From Candidatus Falkowbacteria bacterium HGW-Falkowbacteria-1 (GTDB lineage: Bacteria; Patescibacteriota; Patescibacteriia; Patescibacteriales; UBA12465): a stretch of DNA of 64,000 nucleotides. A program made the translations under genes and the position numbers. The notes beneath the pieces were generated by a model. It was given only the letters and a program-made list of their open reading frames with translations. It had not been told where the DNA came from and ran no database searches. The stretch is taken from NCBI GenBank assembly GCA_002840305.1, contig PHAI01000001.1, positions 29,734-93,733 on the forward strand, read 5' to 3'. Below, in pieces: positions 3,064 through 61,430 of the stretch; the stretch's first letter is position 1; each line of letters starts with the position of its first letter.

Positions 3064-3113
3064 ATATTTATAAATACAGTTTAATTGATATTTATATTAA
3101 AAACAAGATTATA

Positions 3114-3140
3114 TTGACAACTAAAAAAAATAAATATAAT
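3114..3140 (+). promoter_or_regulatory. Sigma70-like promoter upstream of tRNA-Glu
   Basis: TTGACA (3114-3119) and TATAAT (3135-3140). The spacer is only 15 nt, so this is tentative. Confidence 0.4.
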
Positions 3141-3192
3141 ATATAAATACTTTGGCAATAACAGGGATTTTTTTATTTTGCTCAAAAGAAAA

Positions 3193-3233
3193 ATAGATCT
3201 CTCCACTCACTTCGCTCGGTCGAGATGACAAAG
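3193..3233 (+). repeat. REP-like dispersed element, copy A (short form)
   Basis: tAGATCTCTCCactcacttcgctcGGTCGAGATGACAAAG. The same termini recur at 38737-38927, 48802-48850, 59995-60030 (reverse) and 60942-61032. Confidence 0.8.
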
Positions 3234-3260
3234 TATCCTAATAATCTCAAGAATCCCATC
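3234..3260 (+). repeat. 9-nt phased motif array (3 units) abutting tRNA-Glu
   Basis: tatcctaat|aatctcaag|aatcccatc, then 2 nt, then the tRNA 5' end. Confidence 0.7.
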
Positions 3261-3262
3261 TA

Positions 3263-3337
3263 ATGGCCCCTTCGTCTAACGGTTAGGACACCAGGTTTTC
3301 AACCTGATAACACGGGTTCGACTCCCGTAGGGGTCAC
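3263..3337 (+). tRNA. tRNA-Glu (anticodon UUC)
   Basis: Acceptor tggcccc/ggggtca with a G-U pair; anticodon stem ccagg/cctga with loop tt-TTC-aa; T-arm gggttcgactccc. Confidence 0.9.
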
Positions 3338-3343
3338 AGAAAC

Positions 3344-3377
3344 AAAAAAATCAGCTTGTATATAGCTGGTTTTTTTG
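3344..3377 (+). terminator. Terminator after tRNA-Glu
   Basis: aaaaaaatCAGCTtgtatatAGCTGgttttttt. Confidence 0.65.
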
Positions 3378-3406
3378 TAAAAAAAGAGCCCCATCCTTGG
3401 TGGGGC
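3378..3406 (-). terminator. Minus-strand terminator after small ORF 3418..3513
   Basis: GCCCCA-tccttgg-TGGGGC hairpin. On the minus strand it is followed by CTCTTTTTTT. Confidence 0.6.
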
Positions 3407-3417
3407 ATTAGAGCACT

Positions 3418-3513
3418 TCAATTTCTTTTTGCACTGTTTTTCGGGCGTCCGAGCATTTTTTCGGTTGCGTTGCTTGGTCGACCACGTGGTTGATAAGACA
3501 TAACATTTCTCAT
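3418..3513 (-). CDS. Small basic hypothetical protein (31 aa); not in the ORF track
   Basis: Hand translation gives MRNVMSYQPRGRPSNATEKMLGRPKNSAKRN*. It has locally elevated GC, a weak aaaggg SD-like run 8 nt upstream, and its own terminator 12 nt after the stop. It lies downstream of ychF on the same strand. Confidence 0.35.
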   Translation of the reverse strand: MRNVMSYQPRGRPSNATEKMLGRPKNSAKRN

Positions 3514-3671
3514 AAGAATACCCTTTCTTTTTAAGTTAAAAATGTTACTTCTAGGAATTGCCTAGACCTAGAAGAGGCCTTGTTAATGGACTATGTTCTT
3601 ATTATAAATAATTTTAAAAATAAAGCAATAGTTTAAACAAGGAATTAGTTTTGTGGATTTTTTATTTGGCT

Positions 3672-7785: not shown

Positions 7786-8118
7786 ATGAGTAAAGCACAA
7801 GATGTAAGCAAAAATGATTTTGTTAAAGAAGTTTTAGAATCTGAATTGCCAGTTTTAGTAGATTTTTGGGCTCCATGGTGTATGCCTTGTAAAATGATGG
7901 CTCCAATTTTGGATGAGTTAAGTGCGGACATGAATGGCAAAGTTAAAATAGTAAAAGTAAACACCGAGGATTCAGCTAATCAAGAATTAGCTGCCGAGTA
8001 CCAAATTCAAAGTATCCCTAACATGAAACTTTTTAAGGGTGGTAAAGTAGTAGCTGATTTTATTGGTATGCGATCTAAGGATACCTTGAAAAAAGATATT
8101 GAAGCTCATTTGAGTTAA
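7786..8118 (+). CDS. trxA: Thioredoxin
   Basis: 110 aa. LVDFWAPWCMPCKMMAP; the active site is CMPC rather than the canonical CGPC. Confidence 0.9.
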   Translation: MSKAQDVSKNDFVKEVLESELPVLVDFWAPWCMPCKMMAPILDELSADMNGKVKIVKVNTEDSANQELAAEYQIQSIPNMKLFKGGKVVADFIGMRSKDTLKKDIEAHLS

Positions 8119-8170
8119 TTCTAATAATCTCAAGAATCTTGACGATTATAAAAATCCCAAGAATCTTATA
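8117..8170 (+). repeat. 9-nt phased motif array (6 units) ending 5 nt before the gdh start
   Basis: aattctaat|aatctcaag|aatcttgac|gattataaa|aatcccaag|aatcttata. Confidence 0.75.
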
Positions 8171-8175
8171 AAAAT

Positions 8176-9402
8176 ATGTCTGTTTTTGATAACGTTGTTA
8201 AGCGTTTTAGTGATTTAAAAGAAGTAATAAATTTAAAAGACGATGATCTTAAATATTTATTAGAACCAAAATTAGTTTCCCAGACTGAGTTGGATGTCGA
8301 TGGTGAAAAATTCTCTGCGTGGAGAATTGTTTCTAACCGCGCCCTCGGCCCAGGAAAAGGAGGAATAAGATTTCATCCGGATGTTTGTGAGGATGAAGTA
8401 AAATCTTTAGCTTTTTGGATGAGTTTAAAAAATTCTCTTTTAGGACTGCCTTATGGTGGCGCTAAAGGCGGAATAAAATTTAATCCAAAAGAACGTGATG
8501 CTAAATTTTTAGAAAAAATTTCTCGTAAATATATTGATGCTTTTTACAATGTCTTAGGACAAGATAAAGACATTCCTGCTCCCGATGTTTATACTAATCC
8601 GCAAACAATGGCCTGGATGCTTGATCAATATGAAAAAAACGTTGGACATCATGAACCAGGCATGATTACTGGTAAGCCGATAGAATTAGGAGGTATTGCC
8701 CTAAGAGGAGACTCAACGGCCAAAGGTGCTTATTTAGTAATTTTAGAAATGGTAAAAACTTTAGGATTAAAGGATAAAGAGCTAACCGTCGCTGTTCAAG
8801 GCTTTGGCAATGCTGGTTTAAATATTGCCAAAATGCTTTTTGCTGATAATTTTAAAATAGTTGCCGTAAACGATAGTAAAGGTGGCGTTTATAATCAAGA
8901 GGGTATCGATATAAATGAATTAATAAAGTTTAAAGAAGAATATGGACTAGTTTCATCTTTTGCTGAATATCAAGCAGTGTCTAATGATGAGCTTCTAGAA
9001 ATGGATGTTGATATTTTAATTTTGAGCGCTTTGGAAAATCAGATAACTACTAAAAACGCAGATAAAATTAAAGCAAAACATATAGTAGAGATTGCTAATG
9101 GGCCAGTTGATTATGATGCTGACAAAATTTTGTTTTCCAAGGGCATAACTGTAGTGCCAGATATTCTGGCTAATGCTGGGGGAGTGCTGGTTAGTTATTT
9201 TGAATGGAGTCAAAATAGAACTGGAAATATTTTGGATGAAAATTATTTAGCTGGACTACTTAACGAAAGAATGATAAAGTCATGGTATAATGTTTATAAT
9301 AAATATTTAGATTTAGATAAAAAAGTTGATCTGAGAAAAGCGGCTTATATTATTGCCCTAGAAAGAATAATCAAGGCTGAAAAATTAAGAGGAAACTTAT
9401 AA
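8176..9402 (+). CDS. gdhA: Glutamate dehydrogenase (Glu/Leu/Phe/Val dehydrogenase family)
   Basis: GPGKGGIRFHP catalytic-Lys region; VQGFGNAGLNIA dinucleotide fold. 408 aa. Confidence 0.85.
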   Translation: MSVFDNVVKRFSDLKEVINLKDDDLKYLLEPKLVSQTELDVDGEKFSAWRIVSNRALGPGKGGIRFHPDVCEDEVKSLAFWMSLKNSLLGLPYGGAKGGIKFNPKERDAKFLEKISRKYIDAFYNVLGQDKDIPAPDVYTNPQTMAWMLDQYEKNVGHHEPGMITGKPIELGGIALRGDSTAKGAYLVILEMVKTLGLKDKELTVAVQGFGNAGLNIAKMLFADNFKIVAVNDSKGGVYNQEGIDINELIKFKEEYGLVSSFAEYQAVSNDELLEMDVDILILSALENQITTKNADKIKAKHIVEIANGPVDYDADKILFSKGITVVPDILANAGGVLVSYFEWSQNRTGNILDENYLAGLLNERMIKSWYNVYNKYLDLDKKVDLRKAAYIIALERIIKAEKLRGNL

Positions 9403-31495: not shown

Positions 31496-32041
31496 ATGAA
31501 TTTTGAAACAAAGACAAACAATAACGAAGAAATTGATGTTTTGGAAAATAAAGAAAGCGAAAGTGGTCAAGAAAACAAAGGCGACAAAGAAGCTTATCTT
31601 CGAGCCGCAGAAAAAGCTAAGGAAGATTTAGAGATGGCGAAAGAGGGAGACAAGGCTTTAGCTGGTGAAGAAGTAGAAAAAGCTAGAAAATCTATTTTTG
31701 AAAAAATAGCAGGAGCTTTTAAGGGAAAAGAGAAGAGCGAAGAGGAAAAATATGAGAATGAAATGAAAAGTTTCGAAAAGCTAATAAAAAGCTTAACTCA
31801 CGTATCGAGCTCTACTTTAGAATTGGGAGCAAGTTTTAGCGGAGGAATTGATTTCGATGCCGTTAAAAGTCCAGAGTTAAGAAGTAAGTTGGATGAAATA
31901 ATTGATCTTAACAAAAAAATAGCTAAAACAGATAAGGGCCAAGAGAAGGTTGATTTGCTTTATAAGAAAAAAGAATTGATTCAACGCTTAGCTAGAACTG
32001 GAAGAACAGAACTTAAAAATAAATATAACATAGCAGCTTAA
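31496..32041 (+). CDS. Hypothetical charged/coiled-coil protein (181 aa)
   Basis: K/E-rich ORF with its own promoter and terminator. No family recognised. Confidence 0.5.
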   Translation: MNFETKTNNNEEIDVLENKESESGQENKGDKEAYLRAAEKAKEDLEMAKEGDKALAGEEVEKARKSIFEKIAGAFKGKEKSEEEKYENEMKSFEKLIKSLTHVSSSTLELGASFSGGIDFDAVKSPELRSKLDEIIDLNKKIAKTDKGQEKVDLLYKKKELIQRLARTGRTELKNKYNIAA

Positions 32042-38700: not shown

Positions 38701-38737
38701 TAGTAGGATTCTTGGGATTTTTAGGATTTCTTATTTC
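38701..38737 (-). repeat. 9-nt phased motif array, reverse orientation
   Basis: The reverse complement reads gaaataaga|aatcctaaa|aatcccaag|aatcctact. Confidence 0.65.
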
Positions 38738-38927
38738 TTTGTCACCTCGACCGAATGAGAAGCGAAGCTACGTATCACCTTTGTCACCTCGACCGAATGA
38801 GAAGCGAAGCGACGAATGAGTGGAGAGGCCTAAAACAACAGAAAACAGATCTCTCCATTCTCAAATCGCTTTGCGATTTGTTCAGTCGAGATGACAAAAA
38901 AGAAAAACTCAGTCGAGACGACAAATG
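38737..38927. repeat. Composite of four REP-like units (two reverse, two forward) forming a large inverted repeat upstream of a pilin gene
   Basis: B1 38737-38769 and B2 38778-38830 (TTTGTCACCTCGACCGAATGAG...GAGTGGAGAGGCCT). B3 38847-38897 (AGATCTCTCC...CAGTCGAGATGACAAA, with inner hairpin CAAATCGC-ttt-GCGATTTG). B4 is partial at 38907-38927. Confidence 0.8.
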
Positions 38928-38961
38928 AGTATAAATATTTAAATAATTAAAACATAATATT

Positions 38962-40134
38962 ATGTTGAAAAGAAAATTTAAAAACAAAAAAGCCTTGTCA
39001 CGTGGACGCGAAGCGTTTTTACGTGGCTTCACCCTCATAGAACTTCTAGTAGTAATAGCTATCATTGGCATACTTGCCACTCTAGCAGTTGTAGCCCTTC
39101 AACAAGCCAGACAAAGTGCTAGGGACTCCAAGAGAGTGGCTGACATGAAACAAGCCTCTACCGCCTTAGAACTATTCTTTAATGAAAACGGTAGATACCC
39201 CACCACAGATGAATGGAACAGCGGTTCCATTACCTCTTCTACTACCGGAGAAATATTTATGTACAATATTCCTACTGCCCCATCTCCAGCTGATGGCGAT
39301 TGTCTAGAAGCTTCTAATACTTATGCTTATATACCTCAAAATAGTGGGGCTAGTTATACTATAGATTTCTGTACAGGCAAACAAATATCAGACATGCCAG
39401 AAGGAGTGAAACAAATGACCCCGGGAGGAATAATCATGGGAAGTAGTGAGTCGAGCGGTGAAGGAGAAACCGAACCAGCTAGTATTGTTTTTGGTTTTAT
39501 TTATAACTGGTATGCGGTTAACGATGGAAGAGATATTGCTAATGATGAGTGGTTTGTGCCAGATGATTCTCAGTGGAATATTTTAATAAATTATTTGGGT
39601 GGCACCAGCGTAGCCGGGTCAAAGATGAAAGAATCAGGAGTCACATACTGGAAAGACCCAAATACTGGAACTAACGATTTCAACTTTAATGCTAGGGGCG
39701 GTGATGCTCGTGGTTTAAATGGTTACTTTCAATTAGCGGAGAATCAATATGGTCAACTTTGGAGCAAAAGCTCAACGCGATATCTTTCTTTGTATTACGA
39801 GGAAGATTCAGCTGGTGTTTACTCGGACTCTCCTAAGTGGGGTTATTATGTTCGTCTTTTTCGTGACGCCAGCATTGATGAACAAAACAATTTAAGCGAC
39901 GGAGAAAGTGCTGAGGCGTATATTGGTAATGATGGGAAGGTTTATAGAACAGTAAAGATAGGAGATCAGATTTGGTTAGCCGATAATCTTGCCGAAACAA
40001 AGTATTCAAATGGTGACTGGATTCCAGGATTTGACGATGGTTCATATACTGCGATATCTATTTCTAGTTGGGCAAACCTAACCACTGGTGCATTATGTGC
40101 CTACGACGACGATCTTTCCTACGTAATGGAGTAA
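38962..40134 (+). CDS. Prepilin-type protein fused to a FISUMP-like (Fibrobacter succinogenes major paralogous) domain in permuted order
   Basis: ...LRG followed by [24 protein letters not shown]. The pilin head is ~85% identical to that of 4953..6464. Then [10 protein letters not shown]...EWFVP...AGSKMK...[10 protein letters not shown], followed by [20 protein letters not shown]...GALCAYDDD. Confidence 0.8.
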
Positions 40135-47731: not shown

Positions 47732-47740
47732 TTGTTAAAT

Positions 47741-48790
47741 ATGGATACAAAAATAATAGCTACAATTGGACCAAAATCAGAAAATCATGCCATTTTGAAA
47801 TCTATGATTCTAAGTGGTTTGGACATGGTTCGTATAAATTTTTCTCATGCCAGTTATGATCAGTACTACAGGGTCAAAGGAACTTTGGATATAATAAAAG
47901 AAGAAACCGGCATTGACGTAAAAATATTGTTTGATTTACAGGGACCAAGAATTAGGGTGGGCAAGTTAAATCACGATGTTTTAATGAATGATGGTGACGT
48001 TTATTCTTTTTTATTTCAGAAAGGGGATATTGATAACATGGAAATTCCAATCGATGATGCGGAGCTAATTCAGGACTTGAAAATCGATGATCCAATCTTT
48101 TTGGACAATGGCTCAATAGAGCTCAAGGTCATAGAATTAGATTTGTTAAATCAAAAATTTTTAGCCAAAGTGGAGCGAGGCGGTTTGCTTTTACCTCGCA
48201 AGGGTTTAAATGTCCCAAAAACAGTTTTAAAAAGGCCAATACTTACAGCTAAAGATCTACTTGATATTGAATTCGCTAAAAAAGTAAAGCCGGAATACAT
48301 CGCTATTTCTTTTGTTCAAAATAGCCAGGACGTGGTTGAATTAAAGAAAATACTGAATAATGACGACATAAAGATCGTCTCTAAAATAGAAAGAGCCGTA
48401 GCGCTTGACGATATCGATAATATTATTAGGAAGTCGGATTGCATAATGATCGCCAGGGGTGATTTAGGGATAGAAATGCCAATGGAAGATTTACCTATTA
48501 TTCAAAAAAATTTGATAAGACATGCGCATTGGCATAACAAACCAGCTATAGTGGCGACCCAAATGATGGCTTCCATGATTGATCATTATCGCCCAACCAG
48601 AGCAGAGGTGAGTGACGTGGCCAATGCTATTTTTGACGGATCAGATGCTTTAATGCTTTCAGACGAGACTGCCGCTGGTGCTTATCCAATCGATGCTATC
48701 AAAATAATGTCTAAAATAATAAATAAAACTAACGAATACTTCAATAATCGCAACTATTTTAATGATTCAGATGTTATTTATAAAAAATAA
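47741..48790 (+). CDS. pyk: Pyruvate kinase, short form (A and B domains only)
   Basis: MDTKIIATIGP, RINFSHA, DLQGPRIR, MIARGDLGIE, ATQMMASM, MLSDETAAGAYP. The protein ends ~30 aa after the A domain. The track start TTG 47732 was replaced by ATG 47741. Confidence 0.85.
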   Translation: MDTKIIATIGPKSENHAILKSMILSGLDMVRINFSHASYDQYYRVKGTLDIIKEETGIDVKILFDLQGPRIRVGKLNHDVLMNDGDVYSFLFQKGDIDNMEIPIDDAELIQDLKIDDPIFLDNGSIELKVIELDLLNQKFLAKVERGGLLLPRKGLNVPKTVLKRPILTAKDLLDIEFAKKVKPEYIAISFVQNSQDVVELKKILNNDDIKIVSKIERAVALDDIDNIIRKSDCIMIARGDLGIEMPMEDLPIIQKNLIRHAHWHNKPAIVATQMMASMIDHYRPTRAEVSDVANAIFDGSDALMLSDETAAGAYPIDAIKIMSKIINKTNEYFNNRNYFNDSDVIYKK

Positions 48791-48801: not shown

Positions 48802-48850
48802 AGATCTCTCCGCTCGCCATCCGCAGGATGACTCGGTCGAGATGACAAAA
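48802..48850 (+). repeat. REP-like element, copy C (long form with inner hairpin)
   Basis: AGATCTCTCCgctcgCCATCC-gca-GGATGActcGGTCGAGATGACAAAAG. Confidence 0.8.
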
Positions 48851-59994: not shown

Positions 59995-60030
59995 TTTTTG
60001 TCACCTCGGCCGAATGAGTGGAGAGGTCTA
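59995..60030 (-). repeat. REP-like element, copy D (short form, reverse orientation)
   Basis: TTTTGTCACCTCGGCCGAATGAGTGGAGAGGTCTA is the reverse complement of the copy-A pattern. Confidence 0.8.
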
Positions 60031-60058: not shown

Positions 60059-60937
60059 ATGACTGATAAAGAATTATTAAAACAACTTAATTCCCTAAAG
60101 AGCATAAGGATGGAAGAGAATTTGAAAGAGTCAAACAAAAGAGTTTTGTTGACTCAGATTTCTAATACCGTTTCAGAAAATTCAGAAGCAAAGCCTTTCA
60201 ATAATTTCTTCTTTTTTGTTAAAAATATTTTAGCTATGAGTTCTCGACCGGCAATGGTTTTGTCCGGTGTTTTTTTATTTCTTTTTGCTTCCTTAATATT
60301 GGGAAGCGATTTTTATAAAAACTCCAAGCCAACCGATTCTTTGTATATTGCTAGAGTGCTTAGCGAGAGAGCTAGATTAAATACAACTTTCGATCAGACA
60401 GCAAAAGAAAAATTAGCAGTTAAATTTGCCAGTCAACACGCAAAGGACATAGCGACACTTTTGATGGACCCAGAGTTTAACAAAGAAGAAAACAGAGAAG
60501 AGGTGGAAAAATTGTCGGTTAGTTTTAAAAGCGAAATAGAAAAGGTGCGAGGCAATATTAACGCTAACGAAGCAACAAGCGAGATAAAAGAAGATGTGGA
60601 CTCTGCGGTTTTTAGCGCCAGCAGCTTGAGAGAAGAAAATGGAACAGATGTTTATATAGAAGAAGAAAATTTCAAGGAGAATAGCGACATGACTCTAGAC
60701 ACTTTAAAGGATGAGGAAAAAATAACAGTCTCTAATGAAGATATCGTCTTGGAAGGATCATCAGAATTGTCCAGTACTAGTGAAGAAGTAAAAGAGTTGG
60801 GAGAAAAAATAGAAGAGTTAAATGGAAAAATTAGTGACGACAGTGTTATAAGCAAGGAATTGTTAGAAGAGATAGAAAGTTTGTTTGAGAATGGTAAGTA
60901 TGACGAAGTTTTATTAAAATTAAATAACATAAAATAG
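60059..60937 (+). CDS. Membrane-anchored hypothetical protein with an acidic C-terminal region
   Basis: N-terminus MTDKELLKQLNSLKSIRMEENL, one TM segment (PAMVLSGVFLFLFASLILG), helical E/K-rich remainder. It may be anti-sigma/DUF5667-like, from memory only. Confidence 0.55.
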   Translation: MTDKELLKQLNSLKSIRMEENLKESNKRVLLTQISNTVSENSEAKPFNNFFFFVKNILAMSSRPAMVLSGVFLFLFASLILGSDFYKNSKPTDSLYIARVLSERARLNTTFDQTAKEKLAVKFASQHAKDIATLLMDPEFNKEENREEVEKLSVSFKSEIEKVRGNINANEATSEIKEDVDSAVFSASSLREENGTDVYIEEENFKENSDMTLDTLKDEEKITVSNEDIVLEGSSELSSTSEEVKELGEKIEELNGKISDDSVISKELLEEIESLFENGKYDEVLLKLNNIK

Positions 60938-60941
60938 GAAT

Positions 60942-61032
60942 AGATCTCTCCGCTCGTCATCCGTAGGATGACTCAGTCGAGATGACAAAGAGGCTAATAG
61001 GAATAGATCTCTCCGCTCGTCATCCGTAGGAT
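60942..61032 (+). repeat. REP-like elements E1 (complete) and E2 (truncated)
   Basis: E1 is AGATCTCTCCgctcGTCATCC-gta-GGATGACtcaGTCGAGATGACAAAG. A 37-nt perfect direct repeat occurs at 60933-60969 and 60996-61032. Confidence 0.85.
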
Positions 61033-61187
61033 CTGTTATTTATAGCAGGGGTTCGGCGTGACCAACAAGGTCGATCCCGAGAGGGAGGACGCGACGTTTA
61101 AATCAAACTTGTTTCTTTAAAAAGAATATTCATTTGAGAAAAAGAAGAAAAGCTTTAAAATTTTTCACATATAGATCGGTTAAGCTT

Positions 61188-61281
61188 TTCTCCGCACGCT
61201 TATTTTTATAAGCTTGCTGGAGTCGTGAAAAATTATCCCATGCTAATTTTTCCTCGCTTATAACAATAAGTGTGCGGGGGA
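61188..61281 (+). other. Long imperfect inverted repeat (about 26 bp of helix) in the region upstream of the surface-protein gene
   Basis: 61188-61203 pairs with 61266-61281 (16 bp including G-U pairs). 61206-61213 pairs with 61256-61263 (8 bp perfect). The two helices are separated by a 2x2 internal loop. Confidence 0.6.
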
Positions 61282-61430
61282 GCGGGATCCTGATCGATTT
61301 ATTTCAGGACTAATTTAAGGGCAAATCTTTTAAATCTCAAAAGATATTCTCGGAGAGAAACAATAAGTTTCGACTACCTTTATAATTTATATCTATATAT
61401 GAATTTAGGGGTGGTATCTTACAAATTATT

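Follow-up and report, generated by a model that had tools for sequence, protein, structure and literature searches.

What are the short palindromic repeats that recur between the genes of Candidatus Falkowbacteria bacterium HGW-Falkowbacteria-1, and to what kind of element do they belong? This question is raised by a stretch of 64,000 nucleotides (nt) from this genome (assembly GCA_002840305.1, contig PHAI01000001.1, positions 29,734 to 93,733), referred to here as the window, which has a G+C content of 33% and carries genes for transfer-messenger RNA (tmRNA) and tRNAs. A preliminary description of the window, made from its letters alone, noted a dispersed family of repeat units with conserved ends and variable inner hairpins, and proposed either a mobile or recombinogenic hairpin resembling repetitive extragenic palindromes (REPs) and miniature inverted-repeat transposable elements (MITEs), or an element of RNA processing or stability. 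Our analysis points to the former. It is probable that the units in the window are gene-less, non-autonomous copies, similar to REPs and MITEs, of a family that extends across phyla and is partnered with a small GIY-YIG nuclease. Both the cross-phylum spread and the link to the small GIY-YIG gene go beyond the preliminary account.

In the window, the family takes the form AGAYCTCTCC–variable–GGYCGAGRTGACAAAR and comprises six full and three partial units (Table 1). All of them are intergenic, each lying between long open reading frames (ORFs), in agreement with the preliminary description. With up to three mismatches allowed, the 3′ block GGTCGAGATGACAAAG occurs 9 times against 0.22 expected, and eight of these nine matches are family members; the match at 31565 lies inside an ORF and was rejected as a chance occurrence. 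The 5′ block AGATCTCTCC is also commoner than chance, and the joint pattern of both blocks returns six full units where 0.00 are expected. A covariance model built in the course of this work, R1, recovers five of the full units.

The unit is an imperfect hairpin, in which a 5′-AG is followed by a 5-bp pyrimidine/purine basal stem, a T-C/T-C internal loop, a variable apex, and a GACA(AAG) tail. The basal stem occurs as ATCTC/GAGAT, ACCTC/GAGGT, ATTTC/GAAAT, ATCCC/GGGAT, and in other variants. Copies were gathered from all the DNA fetched, using the pattern AGA-NNN-CTC ... TCG-NNN-TGACA, in which three inner stem positions are free. There were 258 copies with fully complementary stem triplets, representing eight types, and about ten non-complementary ones. 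The most frequent triplet pair was TCT/AGA (154 copies), followed by TTT/AAA (55), TCC/GGA and TTC/GAA (20 each), and CCT/AGG (6), while TGT/ACA, CCC/GGG, and TAT/ATA were each found once. Pair counts were made in an alignment of 150 distinct, apex-trimmed copies (A3), whose invariant columns are fixed by the search pattern, so that evidence comes only from the stem positions that vary and from the first pair of the apex. At the three free stem positions, unpaired cells are almost nil (UA142/CG8, CG81/UA65, and UA112/CG33), and the first apical pair is paired in 93% of copies, with six pair types. The observed covariation score of A3 was reached by none of 500 shuffles, and slid controls collapse. 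The basal stem, which the preliminary description did not single out, is the strongest case of conserved structure in the unit.

Apices are between 5 and over 60 nt long. The long ones, which are unrelated in sequence, mostly form perfect hairpins (median z -1.9, with 52% below -1.64). Five different apical hairpins occur in the window genome, the fourth and fifth types in a doublet just outside the window; the presence of different inner hairpins at one position, as claimed previously, is real. That structure is kept rather than sequence is borne out by these apices together with the eight complementary triplet types. Variants in Melioribacter roseus have a T-A pair in place of the closing C-G pair on both sides, which means that strict patterns undercount the family.

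A pattern scan of species-representative genomes identified at least 119 loci in about ten phyla. Acidobacteriota carry dozens of 39-nt copies per genome, and the family is also present in Chloroflexota, Bacteroidota, Ignavibacteriota, Planctomycetota, Verrucomicrobiota, Bacillota, Alpha-, Gamma-, and ‘Delta’-proteobacteria, and four groups of Patescibacteria. In viral contigs, searched with a looser pattern, complementary triplets were found in 169 of the 186 matches listed, where chance would give 1 in 8. Repeats of the GGTCGA(A/G)ATGACA kind, which the preliminary description had mentioned for other genomes, were located in genome, metagenome, and viral-contig loci. Matches in a plasmid collection were at chance level only. 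The comparison with Rfam that had been suggested earlier gave no matching family: at gathering and permissive thresholds, Rfam 15 returned nothing relevant for the window, the cluster at 38737-38927, and 18 diverse loci, with microRNA-type noise on the palindrome only.

The candidate partner of the repeat is a small gene found between its copies. In an acidobacterial locus, a 97-aa GIY-YIG gene has a reversed unit on its upstream side and a forward unit on its downstream side, and its ORF reads into the forward unit. Acidobacterial proteins of this kind end ..DLSTPLRSGRDDK, a read-through of the hairpin, and many acidobacterial protein clusters end ..TADLSTPLRSGRDDK, which is the translated forward unit. 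The same reversed unit–gene–forward unit layout, with compensated stem variants, was observed around GIY-YIG genes in one Parcubacteria and one Gammaproteobacteria locus, and it recurs in a genome of the Patescibacteria and in the cultured organism Melioribacter roseus P3M-2. In the complete genome of the latter (CP003557.1; L339 2800-3600), a 94-aa GIY-YIG gene is located amid at least six variant hairpins, with the variants AGATTCTTC..TCAGAATGACA and GAGATACTTC..TCAGTATGACA.

The association was examined in 80 metagenome loci (289 kb) picked by protein similarity alone, not by the repeat. In these loci, the small Slx1-like GIY-YIG genes typically have a reversed unit before them and a forward unit after them. 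Across these loci, a strict form of the 3′ block (TCGRRRTGACR) occurs more than 150 times, against about 0.15 expected. Within 300 nt of the gene there are 2.5 such blocks per kb, and farther off 0.19 per kb, a 13-fold difference. The block lies nearby in 33 of the 80 GIY-YIG genes, and the full layout is seen in 18; where an upstream block exists, the nearest one is reversed in 22 of 26 cases. Additional, weaker flanking copies at GIY-YIG loci are found by model R1.

The partner protein, of about 95 aa, is a bare GIY-YIG domain (Pfam PF01541, E 1e-13 to 1e-15) with conserved Y, G, R, E/H, and E columns, and with the GIY, YIG, Arg, and Glu motifs present. Its nearest solved structure is UPF0213 BH0048 (1ZG2), a weak match, and no specific NCBIfam model matches it. 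The clade is very large, since 7948 of the 8000 scored candidates from a set of 5.8 billion proteins reach E<=1e-10, and its annotations are only ‘putative endonuclease’, ‘GIY-YIG nuclease family protein’, and ‘excinuclease ABC C subunit domain protein’. The same minimal domain characterizes stand-alone Slx1-like (UPF0213/YhbQ-type) proteins, SLX1, ANKLE1, and HIGLE. The eukaryotic SLX1, ANKLE1, and HIGLE cut branched and cruciform DNA, the kind of substrate that an extruded unit would offer, and such cleavage is documented for GIY-YIG enzymes of the SLX1 lineage (PMC9071465, PMC10287932). The bacterial Slx1-like proteins differ from the partner proposed here in how they have been regarded: a 2006 survey of the superfamily treats prokaryotic stand-alone members as vertically inherited repair factors and leaves repeats unmentioned (PMC1564403), and no report linking them to repeats or mobility was found.

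In four relatives (TsaD 75-77% identical) that share the YchF–tRNA-Glu–TsaD synteny with the window, model R1 detects no unit in the loci compared, 84 kb in total. The window has tRNA-Glu at 3265-3337, preceded by a promoter (TTGACA, 17 nt, TATAAT) that is conserved in the relatives. Between the two, as noted previously, lies copy A; it is contained in a segment of about 83 nt found in the window only and absent from the syntenic site of the relatives. A closer relative (TsaD 85% identical), represented by a 2-kb contig, likewise has no unit at the tRNA-Glu site. Since the relatives lack units, including at this syntenic site, the units are lineage-specific gains and not conserved regulatory parts. 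Copy number also varies within a single population. After ORF 60059-60937, either 2 or 3 complete tandem units are present in other assemblies from this population, whereas the window has one complete and one truncated unit and lacks about 70 nt present in the other assemblies at 60942-61032 (L200:10886-11100; L201; L202). The truncated copy reported in the preliminary description (61013-32) contains a real 5′ half, at 61005-61032; what requires correction is its nature, since the complete units elsewhere mark the truncation as a deletion or a copy-number difference. A further doublet, in which a reversed and a forward unit are separated by 20 nt, lies between fmt and def, just outside the window.

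The earlier suggestion of a REP/MITE-like mobile or recombinogenic hairpin fits these data: the units are intergenic, occur in both orientations and as solo, doublet, or tandem forms, are absent from a syntenic site, and vary in copy number. Like the REP/REPIN systems and their REP-associated tyrosine transposases (RAYTs), the family consists of short, imperfect, intergenic palindromes in many copies per genome, arranged as solo units, inverted doublets, and clusters, with conserved unpaired bases beside the stem and a rare partner gene flanked by inverted copies. The flanked gene, however, encodes a GIY-YIG nuclease and not a Y1 HUH transposase. RAYT-type REPs carry GTAG, whereas the units described here are flanked by AG...GACA(AAG) and contain GTAG only by chance, in two apical loops of the window. 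REP families are usually genus- or species-specific, whereas the core sequence here spans about ten phyla, and the hypervariable apex also sets the units apart from REPs. To MITEs with a parent transposon (such as Correia, RUP, bcr1, and the PATEs of IS200/IS605), the family is similar in that gene-less derivatives share their ends with a gene-carrying unit: doublets of a reversed and a forward unit, 17 to 20 nt apart, correspond to the cassettes with the GIY-YIG gene between such units. Presence/absence variation among related genomes and a possible effect of leader insertions on expression are further similarities. In contrast to MITEs, no target-site duplication was seen here, each ‘terminal repeat’ is a complete hairpin, and solo half-units are common.

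Two other kinds of system offer partial parallels. Integron attC sites also have complementary conserved outer boxes and a center that varies in length and sequence yet remains structured, and they are recognized as folded single-stranded DNA. Unlike attC sites, the units have no R/L boxes (RYYYAAC / GTTRRRY), integrase, or cassette array, and they are dispersed. Free-standing GIY-YIG homing endonucleases and Penelope-like elements are, similarly, selfish units built on a GIY-YIG nuclease; however, the former have extra DNA-binding modules and target conserved genes, the latter are eukaryotic retroelements with a reverse transcriptase, and neither has dispersed hairpin repeats like those described here. 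No known class of prokaryotic transposase is of the GIY-YIG type.

According to the mechanism that we propose, the units would act as DNA, extruded into hairpins or cruciforms. The GIY-YIG nuclease would be the partner enzyme of the family, as RAYT is for REPs; it would recognize the units by their structure and conserved unpaired bases and nick them at the base of the stem. The nick would start copying or recombination and so spread both the cassette and its gene-less derivatives, the latter being mobilized in trans. The copies in the window genome are probably neutral passengers, with possible side effects where copy A lengthens the tRNA-Glu leader and where the doublet occupies the upstream region of the pilin gene.

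Several observations weigh against this interpretation. About half of the sampled GIY-YIG genes have no strict flanking blocks, and when loci are picked by the repeat instead, a GIY-YIG gene is present in 4 of the 119 genome loci listed and in 0-1 of 120 viral loci; the gene was not found in the window or in about 15 kb of adjoining sequence on the contig that corresponds to the window in JGI metagenome 3300029821 (Ga0246092_1000074, 302 kb). Neither target-site duplications nor sharply defined termini were seen on inspection of ten cassettes and of doublets, and no transposition event was caught in the loci compared. The association of gene and repeat is statistical, and the activity of the nuclease on the units is putative. 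Moreover, stem variants can differ between the two ends of one cassette, and the partner protein, at 95 aa, has no separate DNA-binding domain. The differing ends make sequence-specific recognition of the stem unlikely; taken together with the missing domain and with cruciform cutting in the SLX1 lineage, they suggest recognition by shape and the conserved unpaired bases. The excess of repeats over flanked genes is the same asymmetry as that between REPs and RAYTs. A boundary of homology is suggestive only: among the few orthologous pairs, the cassette and the gene downstream of it are common to loci L120 and L123, whose homology stops exactly at the outer TGTCA of the upstream unit.

A bolder proposal, which we put forward tentatively and hold to be distinctly less probable than not, is that an undescribed class of prokaryotic selfish element is made up of the hairpin units plus the small GIY-YIG gene. 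In such a class, a minimal, structure-specific GIY-YIG nuclease would do what the HUH transposase does for REPs and IS200/IS605, acting on hairpin or cruciform ends set by shape and a few unpaired bases. Shape-based recognition would explain how one core design could be found in about ten phyla and in viral contigs.

The alternative that survives best, unlikely as we judge it, accepts REP/MITE-like repeats but attributes their spread to another enzyme (a RAYT/HUH or DDE transposase encoded elsewhere) or to host recombination. The GIY-YIG genes would then be passengers, or homing genes with a preference for insertion into inverted doublets, or genes whose own expression makes use of the hairpins. 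Most copies indeed have no GIY-YIG gene nearby, and the inverted doublets resemble REPINs. Cassette ends with different stem variants are what would be expected of a gene dropped between pre-existing units, and the outer partial units on either side of the window doublet are compatible with nested insertion or with gene conversion. However, no transposase family recurs among the genes beside the units, whose recurrent neighbors, after clustering, are housekeeping genes or otherwise spurious ORFs over the repeats. The reversed unit–gene–forward unit layout recurs in unrelated phyla, the hairpin abuts or overlaps the ORF end in many acidobacterial clusters, and the GTAG of RAYT-type REPs is absent.

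An action of the units as RNA, that is, as a structured cis element (stabilizer, processing site, or regulator) in leaders or 3′ untranslated regions, including the pre-tRNA-Glu leader and the pilin 5′ region, is appreciably less probable still. In its favor, the basal stem covaries by transitions only, as do RNA helices evolving via G·U; copy A, located downstream of a conserved promoter, is probably transcribed and very likely belongs to the pre-tRNA-Glu leader; and several copies directly follow stop codons. Against this, orientation is unbiased with respect to flanking genes (70 copies on the same strand as the upstream gene and 56 on the opposite one; 64 and 69, respectively, for the downstream gene), and both orientations flank the GIY-YIG gene. 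Among stem mismatches, G·T (9) and A·C (6) are about equally frequent, so that neither strand is favored. Single units fold no better than shuffles in either orientation, and the lack of an Rfam match and of conservation of the unit at the tRNA-Glu leader of relatives also speaks against a role as an RNA processing or stability element, as had been considered earlier. In the suggested check of intergenic placement, 82% of copies fall between genes, although a crude gene model assigns only 16% of the sequence to intergenic DNA. Given the absence of orientation bias, of a G·U excess, and of a T-rich tail, a DNA-level element is favored over an RNA element, although it is not proven.

More specific roles were also considered and rejected. 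An intrinsic terminator is not supported, as the 3′ tail is GACAAAG with no T run, and a scan gave no terminator-like sites. For a promoter role, the -10 spacing is inconsistent. The core motifs of small ribozymes (hammerhead, twister, pistol, and hatchet) were absent on inspection and had no Rfam match.

It is very improbable that the units serve a cellular function as sites bound by a host DNA-binding protein (an operator, a nucleoid site, or an uptake-type signal). In favor of this idea are the dyad formed by the conserved blocks, the intergenic location, the cluster beside a pilin gene, and the likeness of the 3′ block to a -35 hexamer (ATGACA). Against it, related genomes are entirely without units, the neighbors are unrelated housekeeping genes, the same core occurs in about ten phyla and viral contigs, and the apex varies too much in length (5 to more than 60 nt) for a fixed protein site.

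Table 1. Units of the hairpin repeat family in the 64-kb window, with positions counted from its first nucleotide.
Unit	Positions	Strand	Features and matches
Full short unit, copy A	3195-3233	+	AGATCTCTCC-ACTCACTTCGCTC-GGTCGAGATGACAAAG; block and joint-pattern scans; model R1 36.7 bits, E 3e-9
Partial unit, outer left member of cluster	38737-38769	-	3′ block (1 mismatch) and part of apex, without 5′ block
Full unit, left doublet arm	38779-38830	-	Variant 5′ block GGCCTCTCC with GAGGT; block and joint-pattern scans
Full long unit, right doublet arm	38847-38899	+	Apex hairpin CAAATCGC-ttt-GCGATTTG; model R1 E 8e-4
Partial unit, outer right member of cluster	38907-38927	+	3′ block only, CTCAGTCGAGACGACAAAT, 3 mismatches; direct repeat 26 nt, 81%
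Full long solo unit	48802-48850	+	Apex hairpin CCATCC-gca-GGATG; model R1 E 1.4e-4
Full short solo unit	59996-60029	-	Compensated stem ACCTC/GAGGT; model R1 27.1 bits, E 3e-6
Full long unit, first of tandem array	60942-60990	+	Apex hairpin GTCATCC-gta-GGATGAC; block, joint-pattern, and model R1 matches
Truncated second tandem unit	61005-61032	+	5′ half only; 5′-block scan

Two of the solo units lie close to coding sequence: the one at 48802-48850 starts 12 nt past the stop codon of ORF 47732-48790, and ORF 60059-60937 begins 29 nt downstream of the one at 59996-60029. The most elaborate arrangement is the composite palindrome at 38737-38927, described previously. Its inner inverted doublet (38780-38898) forms a single long hairpin, with a fold well beyond what shuffled sequences reach (z -4.2), and the whole cluster is identical across four independent assemblies of the same population, so that it is not an assembly artifact. 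The outer left partial unit is 95% identical over 39 nt to 38779-38817, and the apex of the left doublet arm is a direct repeat, not a hairpin. Extra outer 3′ blocks are present on both sides of the doublet, at 38737-52 and 38911-26. At another locus (L115:2440-2600), the 3′ block by itself (CCTTGTCATCTCGACCAAGGTGCTACTTAC) is repeated five times head to tail, with a repeat length of 30 nt, in the region upstream of a GIY-YIG gene; considering this array together with the extra blocks in the window, duplication of the outer 3′ block seems recurrent. Assembly L216 breaks inside the cluster.

The gene next to the cluster is pilin-like, with N_methyl and Fib_succ_major domains. If it starts at ATG 38962, its leader has 22 aa before G|FTLIEL; with a start at the in-frame TTG, at 38993, the leader would be 11 aa long. 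The degenerate copy that the preliminary description placed in this leader (38993-39013) was rejected as a chance match: its local alignment score is 19, while unrelated sites elsewhere in the window score 22-24 and the 99.9th percentile of shuffles is 20, and the covariance model gives no match there with E<=10. In forward copies (3225-3230, 38918-38947, and others), the 3′ block ends in ATGACA or ACGACA, a -35-hexamer-like sequence facing outward, and one such end is matched by an AATAAT 18 nt further downstream, immediately ahead of the pilin gene. From this resemblance, insertions might create weak hybrid promoters.

A second short repeat, ATCCTAAnAATCnCAAGAATCC, occurs four times in the window against 0.03 expected, at 3235-3256(+), 38706-38727(-), 8118-8139(+), and 8145-8166(+). 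It directly adjoins the hairpin copies A and 38737, and is found twice just upstream of a glutamate-dehydrogenase-like ORF (8176-9402); it could belong to the hairpin element as part of a longer module, or be a motif of its own. A non-coding region of about 390 nt (61040-61430), with a G+C-rich core GCAGGGGTTCGGCGTGACCAACAAGGTCGATCCCGAGAGGGAGGACGCGACG and no Rfam match at the gathering score, precedes a very large surface-protein-like ORF that runs from 61432 beyond the end of the window. The YchF–TsaD interval, syntenic to 3064-3671 of the window, is a variable region in relatives (L208-L210): an insertion sequence of the rve type with a HpaII-like restriction-modification pair nearby in L208, a 90-aa Cys-rich ORF in L209, and a 264-aa ORF in L210.

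The combination of REP/MITE-like repeats with a different partner nuclease is new in that no prior description was found in the searchable literature, where both the repeat and its GIY-YIG link are undescribed; most subscription journals were outside the search, and a prior description is possible. For the genomes that carry them, the units have practical consequences. They break assemblies, as in L216, which ends inside one, vary in copy number among the assemblies of one population, seed spurious ORFs (with tails such as ..LRSGRDDK), and can insert into the leaders of essential genes such as tRNA-Glu. If the nuclease drives the repeats, it would represent a sixth enzymatic route of DNA mobility in prokaryotes, beside DDE, HUH, serine, tyrosine, and Cas1 enzymes. 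A minimal nuclease that is guided by structure and has a defined substrate of 27-40 nt could also serve as a tool, and Melioribacter roseus P3M-2 is a cultured organism suited to testing the link between nuclease and repeat. If the link is true, it would provide a function for the abundant genes annotated as ‘GIY-YIG nuclease family protein’ or ‘excinuclease ABC C subunit domain protein’, so far regarded as repair factors.

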